Assembly: GCA_938082545.1 (NCBI GenBank)
Contig: CALKCL010000015.1
Span: 20,025 to 84,024 of the forward strand
Direction of reading: 5' to 3'
DNA from: an uncultured Gammaproteobacteria bacterium
GTDB taxonomy: Bacteria > Pseudomonadota > Gammaproteobacteria > Ga0077536
DNA: 64,000 nucleotides
Part shown: positions 3,509 to 50,424 of the stretch, piece by piece
Numbering within the stretch: the stretch's first letter is position 1
Layout of the letters: each line of letters begins with the position of its first letter
Notes under the pieces: model-generated
The model's input: only the letters and a program-made list of their open reading frames with translations
Databases searched by the model: none
Told to the model about the DNA's origin: nothing
Position numbers and translations under genes: made by a program

Positions 3509-4162
3509 ATGTCGTTTGTACCTCAAAAAGAATTGGTCACAGGAGTCGAGCGTCATCCTTTAGATGCTGATGTCCCGAATGTCATAGAGAAGCTGTTCGC
3601 GCTAAAGAACCAATGTACAGAGTGTAATGTTTGTGAGGTCGCCTGTTCATTAGTGCACTCTCCGGACGGCACAGTGAACCCCCAGTATGCTAGGTTAAAA
3701 ATTGACCATGCACCGGACAAAGCGTCTCGTGTGAATCCAGATGGCTTAGGTTTCATTGCGGAAATCTGTCATCATTGTGGAAATCCACCGCCCTGTGCTG
3801 AAGTGTGTCCGACTGAAGCCTTCTATTATGATCCAAAAACAAAAGCTGCGGTCATAGAACAAGATAACTGCATCCAGTGCATGGAATGTGTCCCTGGTTG
3901 CCCTTTTGACGCCGTGTTTATTGCTCCGTCTGGCGAGCTTCTGAAATGTGATCTGTGCGGCGGAGATCCAGTGTGTGTTAAGGCATGCGCAGCGCGGCCG
4001 GAAATGCTCAATCAAGGTAAACAGTACGTGAGACTTCCTGTGTTGTTTTATTCCGAGCAGGCTGAATTCAATAAAGAACATAAGCAGGTCCCGGAAAAGA
4101 CAGATGAGGTAGGGATGATGCAAGCGATGCTAGAGGCAGGGACAATTTCAAGTCCGGCGTAA
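3509..4162 (+). CDS. 4x[4Fe-4S] ferredoxin-type electron-transfer subunit (AorA-like)
   Basis: Four Cys clusters: CTECNVCEVAC, CHHCGNPPPCAEVCP, CIQCMECVPGCP and CDLCGGDPVCVKAC. The gene lies immediately upstream of the AOR gene. Confidence 0.85.
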   Translation: MSFVPQKELVTGVERHPLDADVPNVIEKLFALKNQCTECNVCEVACSLVHSPDGTVNPQYARLKIDHAPDKASRVNPDGLGFIAEICHHCGNPPPCAEVCPTEAFYYDPKTKAAVIEQDNCIQCMECVPGCPFDAVFIAPSGELLKCDLCGGDPVCVKACAARPEMLNQGKQYVRLPVLFYSEQAEFNKEHKQVPEKTDEVGMMQAMLEAGTISSPA

Positions 4163-4192
4163 GTAGTTAGAGTTAATTTGGGGAGAAATATT

Positions 4193-6157
4193 ATGGAAAG
4201 TCGATTATTAAGAGTGGATTTGACCACAGGCGAACTCAAGAGTGAGGTCATCCCTCATAGTATATTTGAGAGATGGATCGGTGGCTCGGGAATTAATAAT
4301 TGGATTATGTGGGAGCATTTCCTAACTCACGACATAAATTGTGATCCGCGTGGCCCAGACAATATCTTCGTTTTTGGTGTTGGCCCGCTGGCTGGAACAG
4401 GAGCAGGTAGCGGGATTAAAGGACGCATTACCTTTAAGAGCCCTTGCTACAATATGTTCGGGGACTCGGCAGGGGGGGGGAAATTCCCATATATGTTGAG
4501 ATTTACAGCGTTCGAGTATATTGCGATTACGGGGAAGTCACCCAAACCGGTATATCTCCGGATCTGTAACAATGAAGTTTCTTTGGAAGACGCGTCTCAT
4601 TTATGGGGTAAAGACACCTTACAAACACATACTATGCTGCGTGAAGAGTTAGGAACCTATCCTTCAAAAGTTCATACGCTATCTATTAGTCAGGCGGGAG
4701 AGAACCAGGTAGGGATAGCAAGCGTTGTGTCTGATGCCTTAAGGATTCATGCAAGATGCGGCGGAGGTGCCGTCATGGGTTCAAAAAATCTTAAAGCAAT
4801 CGCAGTCCAGGGCAATGGTGGCCTTCCTATAGCCATGCCTGATGAAATGCTAGCCTGGTCCGATGATTTCCGGCAGAAAATAGACAGCAATGAAGCTGTT
4901 TATGGCTTCAAGCGTCGTGGAACCCTCGGTGCGGTTGAAATGTACCAACATATCGGAAGTCATTTTTGGCGGAATAATCAAGGGAATATGTTTCGCGGCG
5001 GAGAAATCACGTCCGATAACTGGGTGAATAAGTATCATAAGTATTCCGAAGTTTGTTCGTCAGACTGTTTCATTGCGTGTGACGCAAAATATAAAATTGA
5101 TGGGACTGAGTCAGAGGCTGCCAAGAAATACATTGGAGAGTCATTTAGACGGCCTGAGTATTTGACCACAGGAAGTGCGGCAGGAGCTTTAGATGTAAGA
5201 GACTGGGCTGAGGTTGCTCATTGGGGCAAAATCACCAATGATTATGGGATAGACAATCAAGACTTGTCATGTGCTATTTCGTTTCTCATGGAGCTTAAGC
5301 AGCGGAAACTAATTACAGATCAGGATGTTGTGGAGCTGTTTGGCCGTGAACAGAGTTTAGAATGGGGCAACATGGATGACATTGAAGCATGTCTCCATAG
5401 CATTGTTTTTCAGAAAGACTTGTTTGGTAAACTCTTTGGTGACGGGCCGTATCTCGGTGCGATTCGGTATTCCGAACTGAAAGGTCAGAATTTCATGAAA
5501 TATGCGACTTACGGAAAAGGTGGTGCCAGCTTTACCGAAGAGATGAGACCCTTCCCAACGTGGATGAACAATATGGCCGTCGCCTCACGTGGAGCCGATC
5601 ATTTAAAAGGGATTGGTTTAATCGAAAAATTCCAGCGTAAAGATCTATCTAAGATCTATTTTGACGGGCGTACAGAAGCTGCAGATCTCACTGTTCCTAC
5701 TTTAAAAGGGGCCTCAACCGCGCTCATCGAGAATCAGGTTGCTCTGTTAAATTCCTATGGAGTGTGCCTTTTCCATTGGATGCTCGACCCCGCCGGTTAC
5801 ACTCCTCAGGATTACTATGGAAAAGCTTATGCTGCTGCTACTGGGATTGACCGAACCCCAGATGAATTAATGCTTGATGGCGCTAGGATTTGCAATTTAG
5901 AGAAGGCTTTCAATTCAAGGATAGGTATGCGGCGAGAGCATGATACTGTGTGTGAAAGATGGATGTGGGAACCCACTGAAGAGGGTATGTATCCTGGATC
6001 GGTAGCGGCAGATATGTTCAATCCAGTTTTAGATGAATATTATGAGTGGCGTGGTTGGGATAAAGAGTCAGGTCTGCAAACCAGAAAATCTCTAGAGGCT
6101 TGTGGCCTAGATGACGTAGCTGAAGTACTGGCGCAAGAAGGTTCGCTCGCTAAATAG
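4193..6157 (+). CDS. aldehyde:ferredoxin oxidoreductase family (tungsto/molybdopterin) catalytic subunit
   Basis: The N-terminus LLRVDLTTGE...GGSGINNW... followed by GxGPLAGT and the overall ~655-aa length fit the AOR family. I take the start at ATG 4193, after GGGGAG at 4179-4184; the ORF track begins at TTG 4178. Confidence 0.88.
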   Translation: MESRLLRVDLTTGELKSEVIPHSIFERWIGGSGINNWIMWEHFLTHDINCDPRGPDNIFVFGVGPLAGTGAGSGIKGRITFKSPCYNMFGDSAGGGKFPYMLRFTAFEYIAITGKSPKPVYLRICNNEVSLEDASHLWGKDTLQTHTMLREELGTYPSKVHTLSISQAGENQVGIASVVSDALRIHARCGGGAVMGSKNLKAIAVQGNGGLPIAMPDEMLAWSDDFRQKIDSNEAVYGFKRRGTLGAVEMYQHIGSHFWRNNQGNMFRGGEITSDNWVNKYHKYSEVCSSDCFIACDAKYKIDGTESEAAKKYIGESFRRPEYLTTGSAAGALDVRDWAEVAHWGKITNDYGIDNQDLSCAISFLMELKQRKLITDQDVVELFGREQSLEWGNMDDIEACLHSIVFQKDLFGKLFGDGPYLGAIRYSELKGQNFMKYATYGKGGASFTEEMRPFPTWMNNMAVASRGADHLKGIGLIEKFQRKDLSKIYFDGRTEAADLTVPTLKGASTALIENQVALLNSYGVCLFHWMLDPAGYTPQDYYGKAYAAATGIDRTPDELMLDGARICNLEKAFNSRIGMRREHDTVCERWMWEPTEEGMYPGSVAADMFNPVLDEYYEWRGWDKESGLQTRKSLEACGLDDVAEVLAQEGSLAK

Positions 6158-6173
6158 GGTTGAGGTTTATATC

Positions 6174-6455
6174 GTGATAACAGTGCATGCTAAGTTTCAC
6201 AGCCATTTCAAAGAGCTCGCGGCTACTGGTGAGGATTCATTTGTTATTGAAATTACCACGGTGAGTGAATTCGCAAAATGTATATGCGACAAATATGGGT
6301 CTAGGATGAGAGCAATGCTGATCGACCCGAAAACTAACGAACTTAATGAGCGCGGAACAATGTTTGTTAACGAAAAGGGAATGAGAGTTTCTGCAGAAGA
6401 TATTCTTGAAGACGGCGAAACTATCACTTTTCTTGTCGGGATAGCTGGGGGTTAA
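6174..6455 (+). CDS. MoaD/ThiS-family sulfur-carrier protein
   Basis: 93 aa, ending in a C-terminal Gly-Gly (VGIAGG*), 16 nt downstream of the AOR gene. Confidence 0.7.
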   Translation: MITVHAKFHSHFKELAATGEDSFVIEITTVSEFAKCICDKYGSRMRAMLIDPKTNELNERGTMFVNEKGMRVSAEDILEDGETITFLVGIAGG

Positions 6456-6855: not shown

Positions 6856-6999
6856 TCAAGTGCCCTAATTTAATTCGTTTAGCATATTTTACGGATTATT
6901 CTTATAATGTGCACTATCTAAAACAACAATTGTTGGCGCGTGTAGGTTTTGAGCACCAAGTAAGTTGCGCTGCAGCGTCGCACAACAGGGGAAGCCGTA

Positions 7000-8238
7000 A
7001 TGAGAGACGTTCATATAGCAGGTGTCAGTATGACTAAGTTCGGAAAGTTTCTGGATAAAAGCCTAAAAGATCTTACAGGGGACGCGCTACATGAAGTATT
7101 AAAGGATGCAGGTTGTAATGGAAAATCGGTAGAAGCGGCATTTTTTGGCAACTGTGTTCAAGGTCACATGGAAGGGCAGGATATGGTGCGGGGAGAGATT
7201 GCGTTACGTCCGTTCGGAATAGAAGGTATCCCTGTCGTTAATGTGGAAAATGCCTGCGCTACAGCAAGTACTGCCTTTCACATGGCCGTTAATTACGTAA
7301 AGGCGGGTGCTGCGGATGTTGTTTTGGCAATTGGTGTAGAAAAAATGTTTTCTGAAGATAAGGCTCGGATGTTTAGCGCCTTTGATGGCGCGTGGGATGT
7401 TCATGAAGTTGAAAAAAGTAAGAGCCGCTTTGATGAAATGGCAGTAGGAGTAGAAATTCCTGAGGGAACTACCTCCCCTCGACCTTACAGCGTATTCATG
7501 GATATTTATGCAGGCTTTTGCCGAATGCATATGAGAGAGTTTGGGACAACCCAAGAGCAGCTTGCGATGATTGCTTCTAAGAACCATGAGCACTCGGTCC
7601 ACAATATACGCTCACAGTATAACAAGTCATTTTCTGTCGAAGAGGTCCTTGCTGCAGCGCCGATAACTTATCCTTTAACCTTACCTATGTGCTCTCCAGT
7701 AAGCGATGGGGCAGCGGCTGCCATAGTTTGTAGCGATGCTGGGTTAAAACGTTTAGAGCTTCAGGGAAGTCGTGCTACGAAAGTTTTAGCTAGCATATTA
7801 AGAGGTGGCAGTGACCGAGACTTAAGCGATTTTTCAAAGCATGCTAGTCGGCTAGCCGCTCTGACTGCTTACGAGCAAGCTGGTGTTGGCCCTGAAGACG
7901 TCGATGTGGCCGAAGTCCACGATGCGACAGCTATGGGCGAGGTGATGGAAGTCGAGGCTCTCGGTTTATGTGAGCTTGGCGGTGGAGGTCCTATGGCGGA
8001 AAACGGAGACAGCCGCATAGGAGGACGTCTCCCCGTTAACCCTTCGGGCGGACTAGAATCGAAAGGTCACCCTATCGGCGCAACGGGGTTGGGCCAAATA
8101 TATGAACTCGTGACTCAACTTAGAGGCGAATCAGGCCAGCGTCAAGTCGATGGTGCGCGTATTGCAATTGCTCAGAATGGAGGTGGTATTGTTGGGATCG
8201 AGGAAGCTGTCACCGCTATTACCATTTTGGGCGGTTAA
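7000..8238 (+). CDS. thiolase-like protein, SCP-x / lipid-transfer-protein type
   Basis: MRDVHIAGVSMTKFGKF..., NVENACATASTAF (active-site Cys) and NPSGGLESKGHPIGATG match the SCPx-type thiolase pattern. Confidence 0.8.
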   Translation: MRDVHIAGVSMTKFGKFLDKSLKDLTGDALHEVLKDAGCNGKSVEAAFFGNCVQGHMEGQDMVRGEIALRPFGIEGIPVVNVENACATASTAFHMAVNYVKAGAADVVLAIGVEKMFSEDKARMFSAFDGAWDVHEVEKSKSRFDEMAVGVEIPEGTTSPRPYSVFMDIYAGFCRMHMREFGTTQEQLAMIASKNHEHSVHNIRSQYNKSFSVEEVLAAAPITYPLTLPMCSPVSDGAAAAIVCSDAGLKRLELQGSRATKVLASILRGGSDRDLSDFSKHASRLAALTAYEQAGVGPEDVDVAEVHDATAMGEVMEVEALGLCELGGGGPMAENGDSRIGGRLPVNPSGGLESKGHPIGATGLGQIYELVTQLRGESGQRQVDGARIAIAQNGGGIVGIEEAVTAITILGG

Positions 8239-8279
8239 TCCTCGAGCGGTTAGCACTCTGAGCTAAGGAATTTTCAGTT

Positions 8280-10031
8280 ATGGTAGGGGTTACAACAAAA
8301 TATACTATCTTGCTTGATGGAGAAATTTTACCATCGAAAGAGCTCGTTGGCGGAAAAGCCTGGTCGCTTTGTCGGATGAAGAGTATGGGATTGTCTGTGC
8401 CTCCTGCGGCAGTAATTACGACGACTGCTTGTTTTGAGTACCTGAAAACCGGAGTTTTGCCGTCTGACTTACGTGCTGAAATTCGAGATGCGGTGACTGC
8501 ACTAGAGGATCAAACTGGGCGGCAATTTGGGGGAAAGAAACCACTACTACTATCTGTGCGCTCAGGGGCTGCGGTTTCTATGCCGGGGATGATGGATACA
8601 GTTCTCAATTTAGGAATAAACAGCAGTGTCGAAGAAGCCTTGGCGTTAGAAACTCAGGACGTGGAGTTTGCACGAGATACGCATCGACGCTTTTTATCTC
8701 TTTATGCTGACATTGTTTTGAAAAGCTCAACCCTTGTTGCGGTAGATGATAAAATCGAGTCTATTTTAGATCGTATTGCAAATGAGTCAAAAATGGTCCC
8801 TGACTGCCCTTATGAGCAGCTTTTTAGTTCTGTTGAGGCGGTGTTTTCTTCCTGGAATTCACGACGTGCTAAGCGGTATAGAAAGCATAACAAGATTTCA
8901 GATACATTAGGCACCGCAGTTGTCATCCAAGCGATGGTCTTCGGTAATCTGGATGATGATTCGGGAACGGGCGTCTTGTTTAGCAGGAATCCTTTGAATG
9001 GGGTTAAAGAACCTTATGGCGAATACCTTAGTCGCGCGCAAGGCGAGGATGTGGTATCTGGCACCTGCACACCTGAGCCGATTAGCGCGTTGCAAGATAA
9101 AGCCCCAATCCTTTATCAGGAACTAATTAGATCGGCAGAAGCTCTAGAGCGCGAAAATACAGACGTACAAGATATCGAATTCACTATTCAGAATGGTAAA
9201 CTTTTTCTCTTGCAGTCTCGCGCTGCCAAACGCTCTCCCGAGGCTGCGGTGTCTTTTGCAATTGATATGGTTGATGAGGGGTTAATAAACAAAGAGACTG
9301 CTTTATCCAGGGTGTCTTCAGAACAAGTGCGCACCCTTTTAATGCCGAGGTTGGCTCAGCACCCTGATAGCGCCCTCTCTGTGCTGGCGAAAGGTGAGTC
9401 GGCTTGTTACGGTGTTGGAATCGGGTTAGTCGTAGCCTCTTCTGATGAAGCGGAACGGCTTGCGGGTGAAGGTCATAGAGTAGTATTAGCTCGAAGTACG
9501 ACGAGCCCCGAAGATGTTCATGGAATGATCGCGAGTTGTGCGGTGATTACGGAGCAGGGTGGTTCTACTTCTCATGCCGCGGTCGTCGGCAGGGCTTTAG
9601 GTGTGCCATGTATCGTTGGTTGTGGAGAGAATCACTTATCGAGCCTTATAGGTCAAATGGTCACAGTCGATGCCACCGAGGGCATTGTGTATGAAGGGTG
9701 CCTAAATGTCGAAGAACCTAATGAAAAAGATGATTCTAGATTAGTTACGTTGAAGCAATGGGTAGATGAAACCTGCTCTGTTAGAGTGATTTCCTGTGAG
9801 GATAGTGTCGCAAGAGAGGCTTTAAATTTGGATGACGTTATTGGTTGTGATGATCTGTCTATTTCTAAAGAAGCATTGCAAGGTAACGAGTCTGTCAGAG
9901 GAAGTATGATTGACTCTGGTAAAGGGGTCTCCAATGCGATCGAGGCTGGAGTGAAGATTTTGGCGACAAGATACCCTTTAGCGGTTGCTTTGACTGTACA
10001 GGAATACTACAAAGATATTATTAATACTTAA
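8280..10031 (+). CDS. pyruvate,phosphate dikinase-like phosphotransferase lacking the C-terminal PEP/pyruvate TIM barrel
   Basis: PPDK N-terminal ATP-grasp motifs are present: VGGKAWSL, LLLSVRSGAAVSMPGMMDTVLNLGIN, GTAVVIQAMVFGN, AQGEDVVSGTCTP, DIEFTIQNGKLFLLQSR. The phospho-His swivel domain is also present (TSPEDVHGMI...GGSTSHAAVVGRALGVPCIVG). Only about 110 aa follow the His domain, against roughly 350 aa in PPDK. Confidence 0.8.
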   Translation: MVGVTTKYTILLDGEILPSKELVGGKAWSLCRMKSMGLSVPPAAVITTTACFEYLKTGVLPSDLRAEIRDAVTALEDQTGRQFGGKKPLLLSVRSGAAVSMPGMMDTVLNLGINSSVEEALALETQDVEFARDTHRRFLSLYADIVLKSSTLVAVDDKIESILDRIANESKMVPDCPYEQLFSSVEAVFSSWNSRRAKRYRKHNKISDTLGTAVVIQAMVFGNLDDDSGTGVLFSRNPLNGVKEPYGEYLSRAQGEDVVSGTCTPEPISALQDKAPILYQELIRSAEALERENTDVQDIEFTIQNGKLFLLQSRAAKRSPEAAVSFAIDMVDEGLINKETALSRVSSEQVRTLLMPRLAQHPDSALSVLAKGESACYGVGIGLVVASSDEAERLAGEGHRVVLARSTTSPEDVHGMIASCAVITEQGGSTSHAAVVGRALGVPCIVGCGENHLSSLIGQMVTVDATEGIVYEGCLNVEEPNEKDDSRLVTLKQWVDETCSVRVISCEDSVAREALNLDDVIGCDDLSISKEALQGNESVRGSMIDSGKGVSNAIEAGVKILATRYPLAVALTVQEYYKDIINT

Positions 10032-10057
10032 GACATAAAATGTAAGGAAATGATGAT

Positions 10058-10558
10058 ATGGCTAAGCCTCCTAAAGGAGACATTGAAAGTCTAGTTCGAC
10101 AGTTTGATTCATCTGATTGGACTGAGCTGCATATTAAAACGAATGACTTTGAAGTCTATTTGTCTACAAATCCAAATTCTTCGAAGCCGGGCGGGCAGGA
10201 AGATGCAGCTACGCCAGTGAATGCCTCGGTCTCGACTAGCAATGTTGGTTCGAAGGTAGAGTCGGTTGATATAGTGAAGTTAAAGACTGAATCAGCGCGT
10301 AGCGTTGTGCCAGAGGGAATGGTCGGGGTGACCGCCCCAAATTTAGGGACATTTTATAGCGCGCCAAAACCAGGTGCTGCCCCATATGTGAGTGTCGGTG
10401 ATCGGGTTACTGCTGATACAGAAGTGTGTTTGATTGAAGTAATGAAGCTTTTTACTCCAGTAAGATCGGGCATAGATGGCGTGATTAAAGAAATCTGCGT
10501 TGCTGATGCTGAGATGATTGAGTACCAGCAGTTGTTGGTCATCATCGACCCAGCTTAG
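10058..10558 (+). CDS. biotin carboxyl carrier protein (BCCP)
   Basis: The C-terminal biotinyl domain carries the attachment motif CLIEVMKLF. The linker region is rich in Pro, Ala and Ser. Confidence 0.85.
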   Translation: MAKPPKGDIESLVRQFDSSDWTELHIKTNDFEVYLSTNPNSSKPGGQEDAATPVNASVSTSNVGSKVESVDIVKLKTESARSVVPEGMVGVTAPNLGTFYSAPKPGAAPYVSVGDRVTADTEVCLIEVMKLFTPVRSGIDGVIKEICVADAEMIEYQQLLVIIDPA

Positions 10559-10565
10559 GATAATT

Positions 10566-11939
10566 ATGATCAAACGGGTATTGATAGCGAATCGTGGAGA
10601 AATTGCAGTACGGATAATTCGCGCTGCCCATTCTCTCGGGATTGAGGTGGTTCAGGCTGTATCTGATGCTGACAGAGATACCATGGCTGCGGATCTTGCC
10701 GATCGCGTCGTGGTCATAGGTCCTGCCTCAGCTAGAGACAGTTATTTGAACTCAGATCTAGTCATTCACGCCGCAAAAGTAACCGGCTGTGATGCATTAC
10801 ATCCTGGCTATGGTTTTCTTTCTGAGCGAGCGAAGCTTGCTCAAGGATGTGAAGATGAAGGGATTATCTTTGTTGGTCCTAGGGCACAAGTCATTGATGA
10901 TCTTGGAGATAAGTTGCGGGCTAGAGCTATAGCTGAGAAAGCAGGTATTCCGTTGGTTCCAGGCAGTGGTCATGTGCGTACCGTTTCTGAGGCTAGAGTG
11001 GCTGCGGAGGTCTTAGGCTTACCGGTCGTCATGAAAGCATCCGCTGGAGGGGGTGGGCGCGGCATGTTCGTCGCGCGTGAAATAGATGCTATCGATGAAT
11101 TTTTTGATCGGGCTAGCAATGAAGCACTAGAGGCTTTTGGAGATGGGACGTTATATTTAGAAAGATATATCGAAAATGCGCGGCATGTCGAAGTACAGAT
11201 TGCGGGAGATGGAAAAGGTAATGCGATCCATTTCGGAGAGCGAGATTGTTCGGTACAGAGGAGGTATCAAAAGGTAGTAGAAGAGGCCCCCTGTGTCCTG
11301 ATGTCGGATACTTTGCGAAAATCTTTACATGATGCTGCGGTCAAGCTTGTATCTTCTCTTTCTTACCTTAACGTGGGCACAGTTGAATTTTTGTTTGATG
11401 TCGAGCGAGATGCTTTCTATTTTATAGAGGTCAATACTCGTATTCAGGTAGAACATACAGTGACAGAGCAGATTACAGGAATTGACTTGGTCCAGTTGCA
11501 GTTTCGGATAGCAGGACAAGAGCCTCATTCATTGCCATCGCAAAGTGCGATTACTATTAATCGGCACGCAATTGAGTGCCGGTTGAATGCGGAGGACCCG
11601 TTCAATAATTTTATGCCTAGCCCAGGAGTCATTCAACACTGGTGCGCCCCATCTGGGGCTGGTGTCCGGGTGGATAGTCATTGCCGAGATGGCTATTTAG
11701 TTCCCCCGTATTACGACTCTATGATAGGTAAATTAGTAATTACAGCCAATGATAGAGATTCAGCGGTGCAGAGACTCAGTGCCGCGTTAGAAGATTTTAA
11801 GATAGAGGGGTTAGTAACGAACATCCCGCTTCTGCGGGCTATAGTTGATCATAAAGACTTTCGTGACAATAGTTTTAACACTAAGTGGTTAGAGCAAAGC
11901 ATGCTGCCTGAATTCGAGCAAATACAAAAAGAGGAATAG
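10566..11939 (+). CDS. biotin carboxylase subunit
   Basis: MIKRVLIANRGEIAVRIIRA, HPGYGFLSE, KASAGGGGRGM and EVNTRIQVEHTVTE are all present. I take the start at ATG 10566; the ORF-track start at 10518 overlaps the BCCP gene and adds a non-homologous extension. Confidence 0.92.
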   Translation: MIKRVLIANRGEIAVRIIRAAHSLGIEVVQAVSDADRDTMAADLADRVVVIGPASARDSYLNSDLVIHAAKVTGCDALHPGYGFLSERAKLAQGCEDEGIIFVGPRAQVIDDLGDKLRARAIAEKAGIPLVPGSGHVRTVSEARVAAEVLGLPVVMKASAGGGGRGMFVAREIDAIDEFFDRASNEALEAFGDGTLYLERYIENARHVEVQIAGDGKGNAIHFGERDCSVQRRYQKVVEEAPCVLMSDTLRKSLHDAAVKLVSSLSYLNVGTVEFLFDVERDAFYFIEVNTRIQVEHTVTEQITGIDLVQLQFRIAGQEPHSLPSQSAITINRHAIECRLNAEDPFNNFMPSPGVIQHWCAPSGAGVRVDSHCRDGYLVPPYYDSMIGKLVITANDRDSAVQRLSAALEDFKIEGLVTNIPLLRAIVDHKDFRDNSFNTKWLEQSMLPEFEQIQKEE

Positions 11940-11945
11940 TCAAAT

Positions 11946-13403
11946 ATGGCACACATACAATTTCTTGATGAAACAATGAGAGACGGGCAGCAAAGCCTTT
12001 GGGGTATGAGGATGCAGGCTGGAATGGCTCTTCCCGTAGCACCCATGGTTGATAGGACTGGTTATAGCGTGATCGACCTGACTGGGTCATCAATGTTTGA
12101 ATGCTTGATTAAGTATTGCTATGAGAACCCTTGGGAAGGCTTAGACCTTTTAGTTAACTCGATGCCAAGAACGCCTATAAGGGCAGGGATGAGGTCGAAT
12201 GCTTCAGTCACATTCGGGGTGACTCCTGACTCCCTGATGGATGCCTGGATGCGTCAACTCAATGTTCATGGCGTGAGAAGTTATTGGATTTATGATGTGT
12301 TGTTTAATATTGATAAAACTTTGCGTTTGGCTAAAGTTGCTAAAGAGTTCGGTAGCGAGGTTGCAGGTGCGATCATGTTCACGCTGAGCCCTGTCCATAC
12401 GGATGATTATTATGCTGGCAAAGCTGATAAGCTCGCCGCATCAGACGATATAGATACACTTTTACTTTATGACACGGCGGGCGTGCTTGAGAAGGAGCGA
12501 CTATCTACTCTTTTGCCGGCAATCAAAGCTAAATCTCATGGCAAACCAATAGAATTTCATTCTAATAATTTGCTGGGTCAATCAGCAAAGGCTTATCTTG
12601 ATGCCATTGACCTTGGGGCCACTATTTTGCACACGGCAGTTAAGTCAATGGCAAACGGTCCCTCAGTGCCATCTGTCGAGTCAATGGCCAAAAACGTTGA
12701 GCTGCTCGGGCACACTCACAACTTAGATACAGATCTCTTTGCACCAGTGTCAGATCATTTTGAAAAAGTTGGGGAAGCTGCTGGTTTCCTTGTTAACCAA
12801 CACGCTGAATATGATGTGTTGTCTATACAGCACCAAGTCCCTGGTGGGATGGTGGGGACTCTCAAGGCGCAATTGGTTCAAAATGGCATGAGTGACCGGC
12901 TTGATGATGTCTTAAAAGAGACGGCGGCTGTCAGAAAAGAACTTGGTTACCCAGGAATGGCGACCCCTTTTAGTCAGTTAGTAGGTACGCAGGCTGTTCT
13001 GAACATTGTTACTGGGAAAAGATATTCTTCTATCCCTGATGAGGTTATTCAGTATGCAGCTGGTTTTTATGGGGAGACCGCAGGGCCAATAGATCCCAAT
13101 GTTAAAGATATCATTATGTCATCTCCACGGGCTAAACAAGTTGTTGCTAGTCCGCCCCCGCAGCCATCGATCGAAGATTTGCGGGCTGAGTACGGTACCG
13201 ATGATGATGACGAGCTAATCTTGAGAGCGCTAGTTCCGGGTGAAGGACTTGAGAAAATGCGCAAAAGTGGGCCGGTACGAACGACTTACTCTTACTTGTC
13301 TTCTCCGGAACTACAGGAGGTTTCCAGGCTGATGAAGATTGCTCAATCTCCTTTAGTACAAGTGATTAGTGATGACTTTGAAATGACGTTGAAGCGCGGC
13401 TAA
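11946..13403 (+). CDS. carboxyltransferase, 5S / oxaloacetate decarboxylase-alpha / PycB type (HMGL-like TIM barrel), without a fused biotinyl domain
   Basis: The N-terminus FLDETMRDGQQSLWGMRM matches the xTLRDGxQS...RM motif of 5S/OadA/PycB. At 485 aa it is about 100 aa shorter than OadA-like proteins that carry a C-terminal BCCP domain. Confidence 0.8.
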   Translation: MAHIQFLDETMRDGQQSLWGMRMQAGMALPVAPMVDRTGYSVIDLTGSSMFECLIKYCYENPWEGLDLLVNSMPRTPIRAGMRSNASVTFGVTPDSLMDAWMRQLNVHGVRSYWIYDVLFNIDKTLRLAKVAKEFGSEVAGAIMFTLSPVHTDDYYAGKADKLAASDDIDTLLLYDTAGVLEKERLSTLLPAIKAKSHGKPIEFHSNNLLGQSAKAYLDAIDLGATILHTAVKSMANGPSVPSVESMAKNVELLGHTHNLDTDLFAPVSDHFEKVGEAAGFLVNQHAEYDVLSIQHQVPGGMVGTLKAQLVQNGMSDRLDDVLKETAAVRKELGYPGMATPFSQLVGTQAVLNIVTGKRYSSIPDEVIQYAAGFYGETAGPIDPNVKDIIMSSPRAKQVVASPPPQPSIEDLRAEYGTDDDDELILRALVPGEGLEKMRKSGPVRTTYSYLSSPELQEVSRLMKIAQSPLVQVISDDFEMTLKRG

Positions 13404-13409
13404 GAACTG

Positions 13410-14582
13410 ATGCGCAGAGCGGTTATTATTGATGTTGTTAGATCACCCTTTGGTAAAGGACGTGAGGGAGGCTTACTCGCTTCAGTTCACCCCGCAGATC
13501 TTTATGCTCAGGTTCTTTCTGAACTTATTCATCGTACCGACGTTGATCCTCATTTGATTGAGGATGTAATTAGCGGGTGCGTGATCCAGGTTGGGGAACA
13601 GTCTGGTAACATTGGCCGTCAAGCGGCTTTAGCTGCAGGATTACCTGAAACCACCGCCGCCGTAACTTTGGACCGTAAGTGCGGTTCTGCGCAGCAAGCG
13701 ATGGATTTTGCCGCTCAAGGAGTGATAGCCGGAGCTTATGATGCTGTGATAGCGGGTGGCGTTGAAATGATGAGCACCGTTCCTATGAAAGCAAATCGAA
13801 TGGGAAAGGATAATGAGGGTAGTATGTTCCACTCTCGCTATCCTGAGGGAATGATTCGTCAAGGTATTTCCGCTGAACTTATAGCGGCTCGCTGGAATCT
13901 TAGTAGAGAAGACCTCGATAAATTTTCCTTACGGTCTCATAAAAGAGCTGCTTCAGATGTCCGGCGTGTAAACGATATGGTGACTATCGATAGGCCTAGT
14001 AGAGTAGATCTGAAAGACGAGAGTTTACGAGCTAATACCACTATAGATAAATTAGCGAGTTTGGCTCCAGCATTTATTGATGAGTTAGCTTACAAACGGT
14101 TTCCTGAAATTTCTTGGAGCGTCACTGCGGGTAGCTCAAGTCCTGTTAGTGATGGTGCTAGCGCAATGTTGATTATGGAAGAGAAGTTGGCTGCTAGCTT
14201 GAACTTGAAGCCTCGTGCCGCTATTTCTCATTTCGCGGTTGTCGGAGATGATCCGATTATGATGTTAACAGCTGTCATCCCAGCGACACAAAAACTTTTA
14301 AAGCGGGCCGGATTGAACCTCCGTGACATTGATGCTTATGAAGTTAATGAGGCATTCGCCTCTGTACCACTTGCTTGGCAAAAAGAGTTGGATACAGATC
14401 CTGAAAAATTAAATGTTTATGGTGGCGCTATAGCTTTAGGTCATCCAGTCGGAGCCTCGGGTGGTAGATTAATTGCAAATCTCCTTCGGGTGTTGGAAGA
14501 TTCTGGCGGTCGATATGGGTTGGTTACTATGTGTGAAAGCGGGGGTATGGCTAACGCGACTTTGATCGAACGCTTGTCTTGA
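13410..14582 (+). CDS. acetyl-CoA C-acyltransferase (thiolase)
   Basis: VRSPFGKG, LDRKCGSAQQAM, NVYGGAIALGHPVGASGGR and MCESGGMANA are present. Confidence 0.9.
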   Translation: MRRAVIIDVVRSPFGKGREGGLLASVHPADLYAQVLSELIHRTDVDPHLIEDVISGCVIQVGEQSGNIGRQAALAAGLPETTAAVTLDRKCGSAQQAMDFAAQGVIAGAYDAVIAGGVEMMSTVPMKANRMGKDNEGSMFHSRYPEGMIRQGISAELIAARWNLSREDLDKFSLRSHKRAASDVRRVNDMVTIDRPSRVDLKDESLRANTTIDKLASLAPAFIDELAYKRFPEISWSVTAGSSSPVSDGASAMLIMEEKLAASLNLKPRAAISHFAVVGDDPIMMLTAVIPATQKLLKRAGLNLRDIDAYEVNEAFASVPLAWQKELDTDPEKLNVYGGAIALGHPVGASGGRLIANLLRVLEDSGGRYGLVTMCESGGMANATLIERLS

Positions 14583-14631
14583 TTATTTCTGCGTATGCAT
14601 TCACTTAATTCAGTAAATAAGGAAGAACGAT

Positions 14632-15417
14632 ATGCCAGATAGAATGAATAACAAAGTGACCATTATCACAGGAGCAGGTTCGGGGATTGGCAGAGCATGT
14701 ATGGAGCTTTTTTCTTCTGAAGGTTCGACGGTAGTTGGGTGTGGTCGCAGACAGGATGCATTGGAGGAGACTCTTCATAAAGTGACGAGTAATGGAGGAG
14801 AGGGGAGTGTTGTCCCAGCAGATCTTTCAGTTCTAGAAGATGCTGAGCGAGTTATTTCTGAGACAATCGAGAAATATGGCCGGGTGGATTGTTTAGTACA
14901 TGCGGCAAGTGTTGGATGGAGCTGGAGTCATACTAGTGCGGACTCTATGAATGACATCGCTAATACTCCTCCAGAAAAGTGGCATGAAGTGATCGGTATC
15001 AATTTGAATGCCTGTTATTACATGTGTCATGGTGTTCTGCAACATATGCTTCCAGCGGCAAAAGGATCTATCGTTAATGTCGCTAGTATTTCAGGTATAG
15101 TTGGAATGCAGACCGCCCACACTTACTGTTCGGCAAAAGGCGGCGTTATTAATTTGACTCGAGCGATGGCTAACTCGTATGGCAAGAAAGGAGTGAGGAC
15201 AAATTGTGTCTGCCCTGGCTACACGGATACACCAATGATCGCAGATGTAATGAATATATTTGACGATGAAGCTGTGGCCGATTCGATGACTCCAATGGGA
15301 CGTGCTGGAACCCCAGAGGAAATGGCTTATGGATGTCTTTACTTAGCTTCAGATGAAGCGAGCTATTGCAATGGAGTTATCTTGCCTATTGATGGCGGTA
15401 CGGTTGCACGCCAATAA
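14632..15417 (+). CDS. short-chain dehydrogenase/reductase (SDR)
   Basis: TGAGSGIGRA is the cofactor-binding motif, YCSAK is the YxxxK catalytic motif, and the length is 261 aa. Confidence 0.9.
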   Translation: MPDRMNNKVTIITGAGSGIGRACMELFSSEGSTVVGCGRRQDALEETLHKVTSNGGEGSVVPADLSVLEDAERVISETIEKYGRVDCLVHAASVGWSWSHTSADSMNDIANTPPEKWHEVIGINLNACYYMCHGVLQHMLPAAKGSIVNVASISGIVGMQTAHTYCSAKGGVINLTRAMANSYGKKGVRTNCVCPGYTDTPMIADVMNIFDDEAVADSMTPMGRAGTPEEMAYGCLYLASDEASYCNGVILPIDGGTVARQ

Positions 15418-15423
15418 TTATTC

Positions 15424-15456
15424 GTAACTCATGTAACTCATGTAACTCATGTAACT
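15424..15456. repeat. 9-bp tandem repeat (gtaactcat) x3.7
   Basis: Read directly from the sequence: gtaactcat gtaactcat gtaactcat gtaact. It lies in the 38-nt gap between two convergent stop codons. Confidence 0.95.
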
Positions 15457-15986
15457 TAAACTAGTAGATTTAGAATTTCTGATTTAATTATATCCATATC
15501 TTCAAGAGTATTGTTTTCTCTAACTAACAGATGACCTTGAAGGAAACCGTCGTTCCTAAGATATTGCAGCTGCGTGCGTCTACTCTTTATCCATTTCGAT
15601 GATTGTTTACTTCGTCTGAGCTTATTTCTCACGCTCTCTTCTTTTTGATTCGTGGTCAATAGAAAGAATTTTGCGTCGAATTTTTTTGCAATAAATTTCA
15701 GCTTAGATATAAGAGTTACTCCCTCAAAGATAATATGTCGATAGTCTTTAACTTTGAAGTTAATAAAATTCTCAAAAACCCCTGTTTCAACTGTTGAGTA
15801 TCTCCAAGAGTCTGTTCCAGAGAAAGTGGAATCGTTGTATTGCCCTAAAACCAGAATGTCATTGAATGCCGTACACTTAAAATCTGGTCCGAAGCTTATC
15901 CGTTTCGGTTCTCCTAAAGTTCTCATCATAGATTTTAGTAAATCAGATTTGCCAACTGAGGGTAGACCAATAATTGAAATAATCAT
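15456..15986 (-). CDS. hypothetical P-loop NTPase-like protein (kinase-sized, 176 aa)
   Basis: N-terminal Walker-A-like IIGLPSVGKSDL and a possible Walker B, HIIFEG. The gene looks visibly more AT-rich than its flanking genes. I recognise no family. Confidence 0.5.
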   Translation of the reverse strand: MIISIIGLPSVGKSDLLKSMMRTLGEPKRISFGPDFKCTAFNDILVLGQYNDSTFSGTDSWRYSTVETGVFENFINFKVKDYRHIIFEGVTLISKLKFIAKKFDAKFFLLTTNQKEESVRNKLRRSKQSSKWIKSRRTQLQYLRNDGFLQGHLLVRENNTLEDMDIIKSEILNLLV

Positions 15987-16073
15987 GTATCTAGTATACT
16001 TCTCTGAAACCTTACGACATGCCTCATTCTCTTAACTAGCCTAAGAGGCACGACTAGTTGTGTTCAAGCAACT

Positions 16074-16721
16074 TTAGCTTATCAGTTCAAAACTTTCGCC
16101 GGTATAAGAGAATAGACTGCCCTCACCGATGTTGTTCCATAGCCCATGAATGGACAACATTTCTGCGGCAACGGCATCACGTACAAATGGGAAACTCATC
16201 AAATTTTCCATCGATACAATTACACCTTCGTGCTCCAGCGCTCGTAATTGCTCTTCTTTGCTTTGGGAATGGTCAATGCGCTCATAGCCTGGCCGCAGGA
16301 TATCCATCCATCGACCGACAAAACTCGATTTTTTCGCCAGTTCGGGTGCGACACCCGAGCACATGTCATGACAGCCATTTACACCACCGCAATTAGAATG
16401 TCCCAAAACAACGATGTGCGAGACATGCAGGCTAGTGACGGCATATTCAACCGCAGCAGATGTGCCATGATGATCGCTGTCGGGACTAAAAGGTGGGACC
16501 AGATTGGCTACATTGCGGTGGATGAAAAACTCCCCCGCATCTGAGCCCAAAATCGCCGTGACATGAACCCGGCTATCACAACAGGAGATGACCATTACAC
16601 GGGGGTTCTGGCCTTCTTCTGCTAGTCGCTTATACCAAGCCTTGTTTTCCGCGAATTTTGTTGCCTTCCAGCCTAAATAGCGCTGTCTGAGATAGGCAGG
16701 AAGGGGAGAGGCAATAGTCAT
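16074..16721 (-). CDS. can: beta-class carbonic anhydrase
   Basis: ISCCDSRV and LGHSNCGG zinc-ligand motifs, 215 aa. Confidence 0.88.
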   Translation of the reverse strand: MTIASPLPAYLRQRYLGWKATKFAENKAWYKRLAEEGQNPRVMVISCCDSRVHVTAILGSDAGEFFIHRNVANLVPPFSPDSDHHGTSAAVEYAVTSLHVSHIVVLGHSNCGGVNGCHDMCSGVAPELAKKSSFVGRWMDILRPGYERIDHSQSKEEQLRALEHEGVIVSMENLMSFPFVRDAVAAEMLSIHGLWNNIGEGSLFSYTGESFELIS

Positions 16722-17346: not shown

Positions 17347-18078
17347 TCAATTATTTTCTTTTTCAACTATCACTATCAAATCAGACAAGTGGTTAATAGT
17401 AAAGCTGGGTGCAACCCTGGCTTTGCCTGCCTGTAATGGTGGTGGCATTCCGTTGTCACTTATTAGAACAGTTTTTAGGCCAACATTTGTTGCGCCGTTA
17501 ATATCATGCTCTGGAGAATCCCCAACAAATAAGATTGTATCTGCTGCCAAGCCAGACAACCGCATTGCCTCTTCGAAAATCTTTGCGTCGGGCTTACAGG
17601 ATTTTACATCTTCCGAACTGATAGCATGATTAATATATTCGTGCAGACCTTCATTTTTTAAAATAGGTTCGAGCATATCATTGTCAATATTAGAGACAAT
17701 AGATAGGTACAGTCCTTTTCTTTGAAGAGCATGGAGTGTTTCTAAGGCATTTTCTTTTAATGTTAAGCAAGTAGTCACTGCCTCACGGTGAGCACTGATA
17801 TACCAAGTTAAAGTCTCTTTTGTTAGCTCTCCTCCAAGCAGCTTACAAAACAAAATGAAAATATCTTTGAATAAATTTTCATGAAGATAGTAAGTTTTTT
17901 CGGAATAAACTTGTGCAATTTGGATCGTTGCTTTTTGATAAAATTTCTTTATATCTTCAGCCGTCGCCACAATATCAAGCTTTTCTTTTGCTTGATTGAG
18001 AAGAGGAATCGTTACGCGAGGCACATCTTTATATGAGCATAAGGTTCCACCTAAGTCGAAGAAAATACCCTTAATCAT
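17347..18078 (-). CDS. HAD-superfamily hydrolase
   Basis: Motif I FFDLGGTL, motif II SIVSN, and KPD....FVGDSPEHDINGA (motifs III/IV). Confidence 0.8.
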   Translation of the reverse strand: MIKGIFFDLGGTLCSYKDVPRVTIPLLNQAKEKLDIVATAEDIKKFYQKATIQIAQVYSEKTYYLHENLFKDIFILFCKLLGGELTKETLTWYISAHREAVTTCLTLKENALETLHALQRKGLYLSIVSNIDNDMLEPILKNEGLHEYINHAISSEDVKSCKPDAKIFEEAMRLSGLAADTILFVGDSPEHDINGATNVGLKTVLISDNGMPPPLQAGKARVAPSFTINHLSDLIVIVEKENN

Positions 18079-18847
18079 TGATCAATAATTCCAGTTTTTT
18101 ATTCCAGGCGTGATCGGTGAAATCCATTTTAATAGCTGTCACGGATACTTTGTTATTAGAGATCACGTCTAAATCTGTGTTATTGGCCGTATCTTTTTCA
18201 GTGTGTGTGATTCTCACCCAGTAATAAGGTTGATTTCGCGCATCAACTCTAGGCTCTATAGCAAAACTTCCCGGAGGCCGATGCCCTTGGGATGCCACCG
18301 CGACGCCGTCCACAAAGTCCGCGGTGCAGTCTGGAAAATTTACATTCACCAGGGAATCTTCCGGCCACTCTTTCATTCGGATTAATTTCTGGAGGACTTC
18401 AGGTGCATACTTGCGGGCTGCGCTGAAATCTGACACACCTCGAGGCGGTCTTACCTGAGACAAGCTAATTGAGCGTATACCCATTAACGTGCCTTCCATT
18501 GCTGCAGCAATAGTTCCTGAATAGCTAACATCTTCAGCTAAGTTAGCACCACTATTTATGCCAGATAGGATTAGATCTGGATGAGCATCTTCCATGAAGT
18601 TCCATAAAGCCATGAGTACACAGTCAGTTGGCGTCCCATCTACTTCAAAATGTTTCGTGTCGCGTTGCTTGGCGCGGATAGGATTTGTTAAAGAGATGGA
18701 ATGACTGGCGCCACTTCGCTCGCTGCTAGGGGCAACCACCCAGACATCATCTGAAAAAGAGTAGGCAATTTCTTCAAGTAACTTGATACCAGGAGCATCT
18801 ATTCCGTCATCATTCGTGACCAGTATCCGTGGGTTGTCTGTCTTCAC
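18071..18847 (-). CDS. surE: 5'/3'-nucleotidase SurE
   Basis: ILVTNDDGIDAPGI...SGINSGANL..., 258 aa. Confidence 0.9.
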   Translation of the reverse strand: MKTDNPRILVTNDDGIDAPGIKLLEEIAYSFSDDVWVVAPSSERSGASHSISLTNPIRAKQRDTKHFEVDGTPTDCVLMALWNFMEDAHPDLILSGINSGANLAEDVSYSGTIAAAMEGTLMGIRSISLSQVRPPRGVSDFSAARKYAPEVLQKLIRMKEWPEDSLVNVNFPDCTADFVDGVAVASQGHRPPGSFAIEPRVDARNQPYYWVRITHTEKDTANNTDLDVISNNKVSVTAIKMDFTDHAWNKKLELLIND

Positions 18848-22230: not shown

Positions 22231-23004
22231 TTAGTCTAGGATCGCAACAGCTCTTGTCCAACCAGCAGAAGCGCCACGAATTTTCACTGGGAAACAGCTA
22301 ACCATAAAGCCACTACTTGGAATAGCCTCTAAATTATGCAATTTCTCAAGATGGCAATAACCAATTTCTCGCCCAGCTTTATGTCCTTCCCAAATAATTT
22401 CACTGTCCCCTGTTTCCGCGTACTTTTCCTGAGTATGGACGAAGGGAGCATCCCAGCTCCAGCCGTCCGTTCCTGTTAGTCTTACACCTTTCTCTAAAAG
22501 GTAGAGTGTCGCTTCTTTGCCCATTCCACAGCCACTAGAAACATAGTCATCATGGCCATATCGGAGTCCTGCCCGAGTGTTTACAACCACGATTTCTAGT
22601 GGGCTTAATTCATGATTGATCCTTAATAGCTCTTTTTCGACATCTTTAGCCGTGACAACATATCCATCTGGAAAATGACGAAAATCAAGCTTGATACCTG
22701 GTTGGAAGCACCAATTTAGATCGACTTCATCTATTGAGATAGCCCGTTCACCATGGTTCATTGTAGAGTGAAAGTGATAGGGAGCATCTAGGTGCGTCCC
22801 ATTATGAGTCATCAGTTTTATCCATTCTATTGCCCAGCCTTCTCCTTCTGGCAGATCGTGCTCTTCTGCGCCCGGAAAAAATTTGACTACGTCCTTCGCA
22901 GAGTCTTTATGCGTGATGTAATCAATATGCGGCCCATACCCTGGCGGATCTGATACAACATCGTTTTCTAGATGCATTGATATATCTATTAGTGTTCTAG
23001 CCAT
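22231..23004 (-). CDS. cyclase-family protein (kynurenine formamidase-like metal hydrolase)
   Basis: [13 protein letters not shown] matches the HxGTHxDxPxH motif. The gene overlaps the upstream Mo-hydroxylase gene by 8 nt. Confidence 0.8.
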
Positions 23005-26717: not shown

Positions 26718-26868
26718 ATTGAATGCAGCTCCCTTTGGCACACATATGTTTCTAAATTAATTCTATGCTAAATTCTATAAAGACGCAGCTGGTTTAAAAA
26801 AGTCGCACTACTCTAGTTCATTCTCTACAATCAGTGAAACTAGTGTGTTAGTTTTTTAGGGGAAAAAA

Positions 26869-31561: not shown

Positions 31562-31563
31562 AC

Positions 31564-32988: not shown

Positions 32989-33006
32989 TAAATCTCCATT
33001 ATTTTT

Positions 33007-50412: not shown

Positions 50413-50424
50413 GGTGAGTTACTA

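Follow-up and report, generated by a model that had tools for sequence, protein, structure and literature searches.

The window analysed here, a 64-kb stretch of DNA from an uncultured Gammaproteobacteria bacterium (contig CALKCL010000015.1), contains an operon in which a derivative of pyruvate phosphate dikinase (PPDK) is encoded together with a three-subunit biotin carboxylase. Gene content was read from open reading frames (ORFs) and from profile searches with Pfam and NCBIfam. Seven genes lie head to tail on the + strand between positions 7000 and 15417 (Table 1): an SCPx-type thiolase (ThlS), the PPDK derivative (PPDKn), the biotin carboxyl carrier protein (BCCP), biotin carboxylase (BC), a PycB-type carboxyltransferase (CT), a second thiolase (Thl2), and a short-chain dehydrogenase/reductase (SDR). 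The gaps between them measure 41, 26, 7, 6, 6 and 49 nt, because BC is taken to start at its likely start codon, ATG 10566 (MIKRVLIANRGE), and not at the upstream TTG 10518 of the mechanical ORF. A first-pass annotation of this DNA had proposed the same seven-gene order, with a spacing of 6-49 nt on one strand, and the same domain content; the ORF coordinates confirm the order and spacing, and the Pfam and NCBIfam matches agree with the domains.

The three parts of the biotin carboxylase, a free BCCP, a BC and a CT with no fused biotinyl domain, are thus encoded together. In NCBIfam, BCCP scores 101.7 against the AccB equivalog cut-off of 115.2 and BC scores 573 against the accC cut-off of 626.5, and because both fall below these cut-offs they are read as dedicated copies. 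The SDR has no match in the PDB at E≤1e-45. A gap of 545 nt separates the operon from upstream ferredoxin, aldehyde:ferredoxin oxidoreductase (AOR) and MoaD genes, and with a promoter-like site of their own in this gap the seven genes look like a separate transcription unit. PADLOC gives no match for the cluster, which is therefore not regarded as a defence system.

Table 1. Features of the operon and its downstream flank, in window positions
Feature	Position	Strand	Remarks
Promoter-like site TTAGCA-18-TATAAT, 10/12	6879..6908	+	From consensus scan only; ~90 nt 5′ of the first gene, within the 545-nt gap
ThlS, SCPx/lipid-transfer-type thiolase, 412 aa	7000..8238	+	Thiolase_N + Thiolase_C_1; under all NCBIfam cut-offs
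PPDKn, barrel-less PPDK, 583 aa: ATP-grasp, swivel phospho-His domain, tail	8280..10031	+	PPDK_N + PEP-utilizers
Free-standing BCCP, 166 aa, EVMKL biotinylation motif	10058..10558	+	Biotin_lipoyl
BC, 457 aa	10566..11939 (mechanical ORF from TTG 10518)	+	Biotin_carb_N, CPSase_L_D2, Biotin_carb_C
CT, PycB-type carboxyltransferase, 485 aa, no biotinyl domain	11946..13403	+	PYC_OADA + weak HMGL-like
Thl2, degradative (FadA-type) 3-ketoacyl-CoA thiolase, 390 aa	13410..14582	+	Thiolase_N + Thiolase_C; nearest in PDB FadA-type
SDR oxidoreductase, 261 aa	14632..15417	+	adh_short; top NCBIfam meso-2,3-butanediol dehydrogenase BudC, below cut-off
β-Class carbonic anhydrase	16074..16721	-	Pro_CA; same place in L005-L007; membership uncertain
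HAD-IA hydrolase, candidate phosphatase	17347..18078	-	Downstream in window-type relatives only; membership uncertain
SurE 5′/3′-nucleotidase-type, candidate phosphatase	18071..18847	-	Passes SurE equivalog cut-off; membership uncertain

The arrangement recurs widely. An alignment of CT was scanned against 185,579 species genomes, 482 of which carry a relative, and the best 80 of these 482 were analysed; they belong to alpha-, beta- and gammaproteobacteria, include four cultured strains, and have CTs 73-98% identical. In two protein searches, PPDK-like and CT homologues share many contigs. For a neighbourhood survey of the kind that the first-pass annotation had proposed, the window proteins were compared by phmmer with all six-frame ORFs of the related loci, which are 20-kb stretches (numbered with the prefix L) to which presence and absence refer, and genes were counted only in loci with enough flanking DNA to judge. 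The survey finds the PPDK-like gene co-conserved with BCCP, BC and CT: PPDKn stands beside the carboxylase in 59 of 62 assessable loci, BC is present in 69 of 72 and BCCP in 64 of 66, Thl2 lies directly 3′ of CT in 65 of 72, and an SDR gene is found near the cluster in 38 of 48. The order PPDKn-BCCP-BC-CT-Thl2(-SDR) is maintained in alpha-, beta- and gammaproteobacteria and on a Rhodococcus plasmid, and such identical gene order in dozens of genomes puts the arrangement far beyond chance. The system is real, strongly conserved, and so far uncharacterised.

By CT, the genome bin nearest to the window is UBA4457 (98% identity). The cluster is frequent in metagenome bins of marine Gammaproteobacteria, and near-identical CTs are found on dozens of contigs. 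Carriers available in culture are Spectribacter acetivorans P385 (L083), Roseiarcus fermentans DSM 24875, Panacagrimonas perspica DSM 26377, Pseudooceanicola atlanticus 22II-s11g and Rhodococcus pyridinivorans P23 (plasmid pA), with a GntR/FCD or LuxR regulator gene adjacent to the cluster. The core cluster is also carried by a plasmid of Rhodococcus pyridinivorans, with a CT of 48% identity, and by a megaplasmid of Novosphingobium resinovorum (the large plasmids of L084 and L086), and in one metagenome-assembled genome (MAG) it adjoins the type IV secretion genes TrbI, CagX and VirB8 (L090:16450-19483). The plasmids and the type IV secretion neighbours suggest horizontal spread, and CTs that are 73-98% identical in three different proteobacterial classes agree with it.

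Characterised pathways that pair a kinase with a biotin carboxylase provide the closest comparison. In the hydroxyphenylethanone pathway of Rhodococcus rhodochrous GD02 (HpeHI-HpeCBA-HpeD-HpeEF), 4-hydroxyacetophenone and acetovanillone are first phosphorylated by the dikinase HpeHI; the biotin enzyme HpeCBA carboxylates the phosphorylated ketone only, HpeD removes the phosphate, and a CoA ligase and a hydrolase complete the route (PMC9618137). HpeHI, which has two components and is related to rifampin phosphotransferase (RPH), yields AMP (PMC12167813). Sphingobium sp. SYK-6 has the homologous genes acvABCDEF, of which AcvE is PycB-like, and both the kinases HpeHI/AcvAB and the carboxylases HpeCBA/AcvCDE have been characterised (PMC9618137; bioRxiv 10.1101/2022.04.28.489975; PMC12167813). 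In Novosphingobium aromaticivorans, the kinase is replaced by an unrelated UPF0261 protein, MarK (PMC12624787; 2025), and two plasmid clusters among the loci examined here, L085 and L087, are of the MarK type. The first-pass annotation could name no biotin carboxylase system with an ATP-to-AMP phospho-His enzyme; that view is outdated, as the Hpe/Acv systems (2022) pair such a kinase with a PycB-type carboxylase. The window operon contains neither a two-component dikinase of the HpeHI/AcvAB type nor a MarK (UPF0261)-type kinase; its kinase-like gene is PPDK-derived.

By sequence, PPDKn is a true PPDK derivative and is related to VadK (Rv1127c), a barrel-less PPDK of Mycobacterium tuberculosis. 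It scores 682 bits with the NCBIfam model PRK05878 (NF004531, a 534-position "PPDK" model; cut-off 456) and does not pass the true-PPDK model TIGR01828 (505 bits; cut-off 843). Solved PPDKs are matched with ~360 bits; the alignment to PPDK stops near residue 541 of 874, and the C-terminal phosphoenolpyruvate (PEP)/pyruvate TIM barrel is absent. The ATP-grasp motifs and the swivel-domain motif GGSTSH(432)AAVV are invariant in 40 homologues. An AlphaFold2 (AF2) model of PPDKn (pLDDT 89.5) finds PPDKs at the top of the Foldseek matches (E ~1e-54, 36% identity) and HpeI (9goj) over the ATP-grasp part only (E 1.4e-8, 18% identity). The tail, residues ~486-583, consists of three β-α units, is conserved and confidently modelled, and in alignment corresponds to the first part of the barrel region of PPDK. 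The barrel is thus missing, as the first-pass annotation had claimed, and that description needs amending in one respect, since the end of the swivel domain is no clean break and a conserved stump follows it.

In a library clustered at 50% identity, the 576-599-aa form of PPDKn has ~8 representatives; barrel-less proteins of 471-500 aa come next, followed by full-length PPDKs. The ratio of nonsynonymous to synonymous substitution (ω) is 0.175 for PPDKn versus 0.007-0.07 for its neighbours, as calculated from one close pair only (with L004, the nearest relative), dS being saturated in every other comparison. A value of 0.175 denotes purifying selection; the relaxed selection that the first-pass annotation had listed among the findings that would refute its reading was not seen.

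The CT is not an ordinary PycB. It belongs to the same TIM-barrel and PYC_OADA fold family as PycA/PycB pyruvate carboxylase, OadA and 5S, and its best sequence matches in the PDB, 28-31% identical, are the β subunit of two-subunit pyruvate carboxylase, OadA and 5S (5ks8_C, 2nx9 and 1rqb). It falls below every NCBIfam equivalog cut-off, with 271 against 734 for PycB, 267 against 756 for OadA and 212 against 827 for 5S, and is also below the cut-offs for pyruvate carboxylase (PC) and for the domain model PRK09282 (312 against 402). In a neighbor-joining tree, which was built without bootstrap or other support values and in which the AcvE branch is represented by the MarK-linked plasmid homologues L085 and L087, the window CT clade and the Rhodococcus protein are sister to the AcvE-type proteins and stand apart from PycB, OadA and 5S; identity to these two homologues is 35-36%, with differing metal ligands. 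The missed cut-offs and this position in the tree leave no sign of the tight clustering with two-subunit pyruvate carboxylase that the first-pass annotation had likewise listed as a refuting outcome. By this tree, the kin of the CT are in the AcvE branch.

The metal site of the CT is remodelled. Asp13 and His205 are kept, the carbamylated lysine (carbamyl-Lys) is replaced by Tyr175, and the HxH motif reads His205-Ser-Asn207, so that two of the four canonical metal ligands of pyruvate carboxylase are lost. The changes to Tyr175 and Asn207 are invariant in the CT clade. In the Rhodococcus homologue, Lys is replaced by Glu and HxH is retained; the carbamyl-Lys is thus lost in all PPDKn-linked CTs and one His in the proteobacterial clade. 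Both carbamyl-Lys and HxH are canonical in the MarK-linked AcvE homologues and in the other PycB-like proteins examined, and because these keep it, loss of the carbamyl-Lys tracks association with the PPDK-like gene. To our knowledge, this ligand is conserved throughout the characterised carboxyltransferase family; it is kept in every PycB, OadA, 5S and AcvE-type homologue aligned, and its loss in the CT clade bears on the mechanism of biotin enzymes.

By alignment, the CT also retains Arg12, Asp13, Gln16, Arg83 and the catalytic Thr340, residues that in pyruvate carboxylase line the pyruvate site. These residues would fit a proposal of the first-pass annotation in which the operon encodes an enzyme of the pyruvate/PEP/oxaloacetate node and the CT barrel replaces the missing PPDK barrel, and the far closer resemblance of PPDKn to true PPDK than to the aromatic dikinases points the same way. 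Such an enzyme is nevertheless very unlikely. The CT misses the PycB, OadA, 5S and PC cut-offs, lacks the carbamyl-Lys and the second metal-site His, and groups with the AcvE-type ketone carboxylases; the cluster is accompanied by CoA ligase, thiolase, acyl-CoA dehydrogenase, SDR and GntR genes; its plasmids and type IV secretion genes are atypical of central metabolism; and only 482 of ~185,000 species genomes carry a relative of the CT. The catabolic, partly mobile context, the loss of two of four metal ligands and the divergence of the CT thus disfavour this proposal. In addition to sequence identity and metal ligands (Lys to Tyr175, HxH to HxN), the CT differs from PycB, OadA and 5S in lacking a fused biotinyl domain and in its gene context.

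The window operon is a reduced form of a larger cluster, a point overlooked in the first-pass annotation. In most loci, four genes lie directly 5′ of PPDKn: those of three protein families designated X249, X520 and X202 and that of an AMP-binding CoA ligase. X249, X520 and X202 are found in ~36-41 of 49 related loci (e.g. L001:7063-9991 and L084:866-5258), and the ligase in 36 of 49. Among the 49 loci with at least 9 kb of upstream DNA, 28 have all four genes and 7 are of the window type, with the SCPx thiolase only. For the most part the ligase and a high-scoring ThlS exclude each other (28 loci with the ligase and no ThlS, 7 with ThlS only), and L016 has an intermediate form, ThlS-X202-PPDKn. 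ThlS is 76-84% identical in relatives and is present in window-type and in some full-type clusters.

The full system includes three conserved families without detectable relatives, namely the N-terminal part of X249, X520 and X202. X249 (~249 aa) has a weak C-terminal swivel-His domain with an invariant RSH motif and no further match in Pfam, NCBIfam or PDB sequences; X520 and X202 have no match in any of the three. The confident AF2 model of X520 (pLDDT 86, pTM 0.88) has no Foldseek match (best E 0.1). By tblastn, neither X249, X520 and X202 nor acetone carboxylase (Acx) genes are present in the 64-kb window. No CoA ligase or transferase is encoded in or beside the window operon, and the sole AMP-binding ligase of the window, at 29700-31250, lies with the box genes. 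In the window, the roles of X249, X520, X202 and the ligase must be dispensable, supplied elsewhere, or assumed by the remaining proteins.

A GntR/FCD regulator recurs near the cluster as well, as do an acyl-CoA dehydrogenase and phosphatases. The Rhodococcus cluster contains a PTP-type phosphatase, a DUF35 protein with an SCPx thiolase, and an SRPBCC protein. The position of SurE differs among relatives: in L077 the gene is within the operon, in L086 it stands between X249 and X202, and in L090 it is part of a SurE-X249-X520-SDR operon. In the window, no NagD-like haloacid dehalogenase (HAD) phosphatase gene is found in the operon, and HAD-IA and SurE genes lie 1.9-2.7 kb downstream on the opposite strand. 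The upstream partners of the reduced form vary: AOR in the window and L007, acetone-carboxylase-like genes in L002, L021 and L025, and a linalool-dehydratase-family gene in L091.

In our preferred reading, to which we give a probability of about one half, the seven genes make up a single operon for a catabolic route operating in the manner of the Hpe/Acv pathway. Similar to Hpe/Acv (also Xcc, Aromatoleum aromaticum EbN1), the operon clusters an ATP-dependent kinase gene with a three-subunit biotin carboxylase whose PycB-like CT is not fused to BCCP; phosphatase genes are associated, the kinase module appears interchangeable, and a β-keto acid would be followed by CoA activation and cleavage. 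In favour of this reading are also the dedicated BCCP and BC copies, the catalytic His and ATP-grasp motifs that PPDKn retains under purifying selection, the autophosphorylation of a VadK-type barrel-less PPDK on the equivalent His (PMC13400623), and the carbonic anhydrase or SulP transporter next to the operon. Gene content, its strong co-conservation, the intact catalytic motifs and the kinship of the CT are observations; what accepts the phosphoryl group, which substrate is used and in what order the steps run are inferred, as follows. The SDR would oxidise a secondary alcohol to a ketone. PPDKn would then take the β-phosphate of ATP onto His432, with conversion of ATP to AMP, and would act as the phosphoryl-donor module, in the role that HpeHI/AcvAB or MarK has elsewhere, to give a phosphorylated small-molecule intermediate; in most genomes X249, X520 and X202 would join it in this module. 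BC would carboxylate biotin on the free BCCP, and CT would transfer the carboxyl group to the carbon beside the keto group, giving a β-keto acid. A phosphatase would then strip the phosphate, and after CoA activation the thiolases would cleave the β-ketoacyl-CoA to acetyl-CoA and a shorter acyl-CoA.

The sequence of phosphoryl activation, biotin-dependent ketone carboxylation and thiolysis had been put forward in the first-pass annotation with an enol phosphate as the activated form. In outline it is supported, as it fits the genes that relatives carry for a CoA ligase, a thiolase, an SDR, an acyl-CoA dehydrogenase, a GntR regulator and phosphatases. As for the phosphate itself, non-homologous phosphatases recur beside the cluster and favour an Hpe-like handle, placed on a hydroxyl and taken off afterwards, over an enol phosphate. 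In the enol-phosphate version, the phospho-His of PPDKn would phosphorylate an otherwise unactivated ketone inside the remodelled CT barrel, and the resulting enol phosphate would be carboxylated by carboxybiotin with release of phosphate. We regard this as doubtful, and it is kept alive by the ancestral enol-phosphorylating chemistry of PPDK and by the remodelled metal site of the CT. If it were true, ketones would be carboxylated by a biotin-dependent enzyme in the manner of PEP carboxylase, a mechanism undescribed for any biotin enzyme; the barrel-less PPDKs related to VadK would gain their first small-molecule function; and an unrecognised marine sink for acetone or isoprenoid ketones could be indicated.

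The Hpe/Acv-like route differs from its characterised counterparts in several respects. The window kinase is neither an RPH-like two-component dikinase nor a UPF0261/MarK protein; it derives from PPDK and has a swivel domain of its own. The CT lacks the carbamyl-Lys, whereas AcvE-type proteins keep the metal site. PPDKn clusters mostly add X249, X520 and X202, the window operon has no NagD-type HAD gene, true thiolases stand in place of VceAB/HpeF, and the substrate need not be aromatic.

Several observations weigh against an Hpe/Acv-like route. The functional assignment of the operon draws on gene context and homology. The Panacagrimonas MAG loci L052 and L053 have X202, BCCP and CT side by side, and no PPDKn or BC was detected nearby; these are two of the three assessable loci, of 62, that were not scored with PPDKn. 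PPDKn evolves faster than its neighbours (60% identity versus 88% for CT). The distance of the CT from AcvE-type proteins, together with the loss of the carbamyl-Lys and one metal-site His, means that its chemistry may differ from that of HpeB. The window form has no kinase acceptor or substrate-binding domain, no CoA ligase and no phosphatase in the operon, and the SurE of the window is canonical and may be a housekeeping protein. To these is added the example of VadK, the only barrel-less PPDK studied so far, which shares the architecture of PPDKn, autophosphorylates on His and interacts with methylcitrate-cycle enzymes, for which it is a proposed regulator (PMC13400623), with no small-molecule acceptor known.

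VadK provides the model for the main alternative, possible if unlikely, in which PPDKn would phosphorylate or bind CT, BC or a thiolase to tune flux, and the carboxylase substrate would be unphosphorylated. The comparison with VadK was made by way of the PRK05878 family model and the published description. Similar to VadK, PPDKn combines a PPDK ATP-grasp domain with a swivel-His domain, keeps the catalytic His and has no PEP/pyruvate barrel; it scores above the PRK05878 cut-off, and its nearest relatives outside the family are the 471-500-aa barrel-less proteins. The missing acceptor domain of the window form, the annotation of the Rhodococcus phosphatase as a tyrosine-protein phosphatase, and the existence of kinase-less PycB-like carboxylase clusters with CoA transferase and thiolase (Cnuibacter) are all in keeping with regulation. 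The two proteins differ, however, in size (490 aa for VadK versus 583 aa for PPDKn, with its tail of three β-α units) and in setting. The VadK gene lies by methylcitrate-cycle genes, whereas PPDKn sits amid the carboxylase structural genes in a fixed order beside BCCP, like a subunit; neither prpC nor prpD was found among annotated window ORFs of at least 150 aa. Moreover, most clusters add upstream a second swivel-His protein and two conserved X proteins, which resembles a split small-molecule dikinase in the manner of HpeH/HpeI, and both characterised sister systems phosphorylate the substrate.

Two further plasmid loci carry PycB-like carboxylase genes in other surroundings. In L089:7926-14610 (Cnuibacter physcomitrellae plasmid), PycB-like CT, BCCP and BC genes accompany BioY, 3-oxoacid CoA-transferase A/B and thiolase genes, and no kinase gene is present. 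L088:8980-12392 (Burkholderia sp. THE68 plasmid) has these three carboxylase genes in the vicinity of acetoacetate decarboxylase, acetate symporter, carbonic anhydrase and biotin synthesis genes. These carboxylases may be kinase-independent biotin-dependent ketone or β-keto-acid enzymes, and they are apparently uncharacterised.

The missing CoA ligase of the window form raises a further alternative, in which PPDKn would activate the carboxylate of the β-keto acid as an acyl phosphate, from which free CoA or a thiolase-like enzyme would form the thioester, and so replace the ligase. Window-type clusters, which have an SCPx-type thiolase in place of the AMP-binding ligase, would agree with such a role; PPDKn and the ligase coexist in 36 of 49 loci, however, so PPDKn is no general substitute for the ligase. 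We know of no case of carboxylate phosphorylation by the PPDK/dikinase superfamily. The superfamily is described as phosphorylating pyruvate, rifampin and phenolic substrates, with no carboxylates among these (PMC12167813). Among the explanations considered, activation as an acyl phosphate is highly improbable and the least likely.

The Hpe/Acv-like route would not be categorically new, as kinase-assisted biotin-dependent ketone carboxylation has been established since 2022. It is a distinct variant, with a third, unrelated kinase type (PPDK-derived), a CT clade whose metal site is changed, the three X families of its full form and possibly a non-aromatic substrate. No description of PPDKn combined with a biotin carboxylase was found in the literature, in a search that had most subscription journals outside its reach, so that this absence is no proof. 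For the barrel-less PPDKs, a class recognised recently (VadK, 2025-26), the operon offers a concrete set of partners. If the proposed route is correct, phosphorylation, carboxylation, dephosphorylation and thiolysis would make up a general bacterial strategy for ketones, assembled on at least three occasions from unrelated kinases and extending beyond lignin-derived aromatics. Acetone and acetophenone carboxylases (AcxABC, Apc) and phenylphosphate synthase/carboxylase follow a similar logic, in that ATP is spent on activating a poorly acidic ketone or phenol before carboxylation; these enzymes are non-homologous and biotin-independent, being of the hydantoinase or UbiD type, and no such genes are found in the window.

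The substrate may be a small or isoprenoid ketone, a hydroxy-ketone or an aryl ketone, and it may matter for the marine turnover of volatile or isoprenoid ketones. Leads are provided by the BudC-like SDR, the Acx-like and linalool dehydratase/isomerase (Ldi)-like neighbours, the Rhodococcus SRPBCC protein and the nearby box genes. In L002/L003:3559-8488, with equivalents in L021 and L025, hydantoinase A, hydantoinase B and Acetone_carb_G genes are divergent and next to the SCPx thiolase. In L091:5805-8520, a TetR regulator gene and a gene for a 645-aa protein of the linalool dehydratase/isomerase family (PF18566) lie directly 5′ of the SCPx thiolase, and the PF18566 gene hints at a terpenoid or isoprenoid substrate. 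The aerobic benzoyl-CoA (box) pathway genes of the window (29700-35597, - strand) encode a BoxB-like protein with a weak PaaA_PaaC match, a 567-aa BoxC-like protein of the enoyl-CoA hydratase family, an AMP-binding CoA ligase, and a regulator with HTH and shikimate-kinase domains; were aryl ketones the substrates of the carboxylase route, these gene products could receive the benzoyl-CoA.

Directly 5′ of the carboxylase operon, the AOR operon (3509-6455, + strand) encodes a YdhY-like 4Fe-4S protein, a YdhV-like AOR-family protein of 659 aa and a MoaD-like protein. The same genes are found in L007, and the organism of the window also holds oxygenase genes. Convergent with the carboxylase operon on its downstream side are genes for the carbonic anhydrase, a DUF4440 protein, the HAD-IA hydrolase and SurE. 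A 176-aa P-loop-like ORF and the β-carbonic anhydrase follow the SDR at 15456-16721 (- strand); in L092:8249-9829, where PPDKn is 97% identical, a SulP/STAS transporter gene stands 3′ of the SDR instead. A possible function of either the carbonic anhydrase or the transporter is bicarbonate supply.

A further group at 22231-26741 (- strand) encodes a putative cyclase, a 967-aa Mo hydroxylase of the xanthine dehydrogenase (XDH) family to which a 2Fe-2S domain is fused, and the FAD subunit of this hydroxylase. The 967-aa ORF and one of 974 aa had been considered as ethylbenzene-dehydrogenase-like enzymes, which would have pointed to anaerobic alkane or steroid ketone carboxylation; this was rejected, as the first is the XDH-family Mo hydroxylase and the second a PreP/M16 peptidase. 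The rest of the window is an ordinary marine gammaproteobacterial chromosome with groEL, gshA, trpE, queA and the box-pathway cluster. At 49537-51402 (+ strand) it carries a CT_C_D and CT_A_B pair, PxpB/PxpC-like 5-oxoprolinase subunits that are unrelated to the operon.

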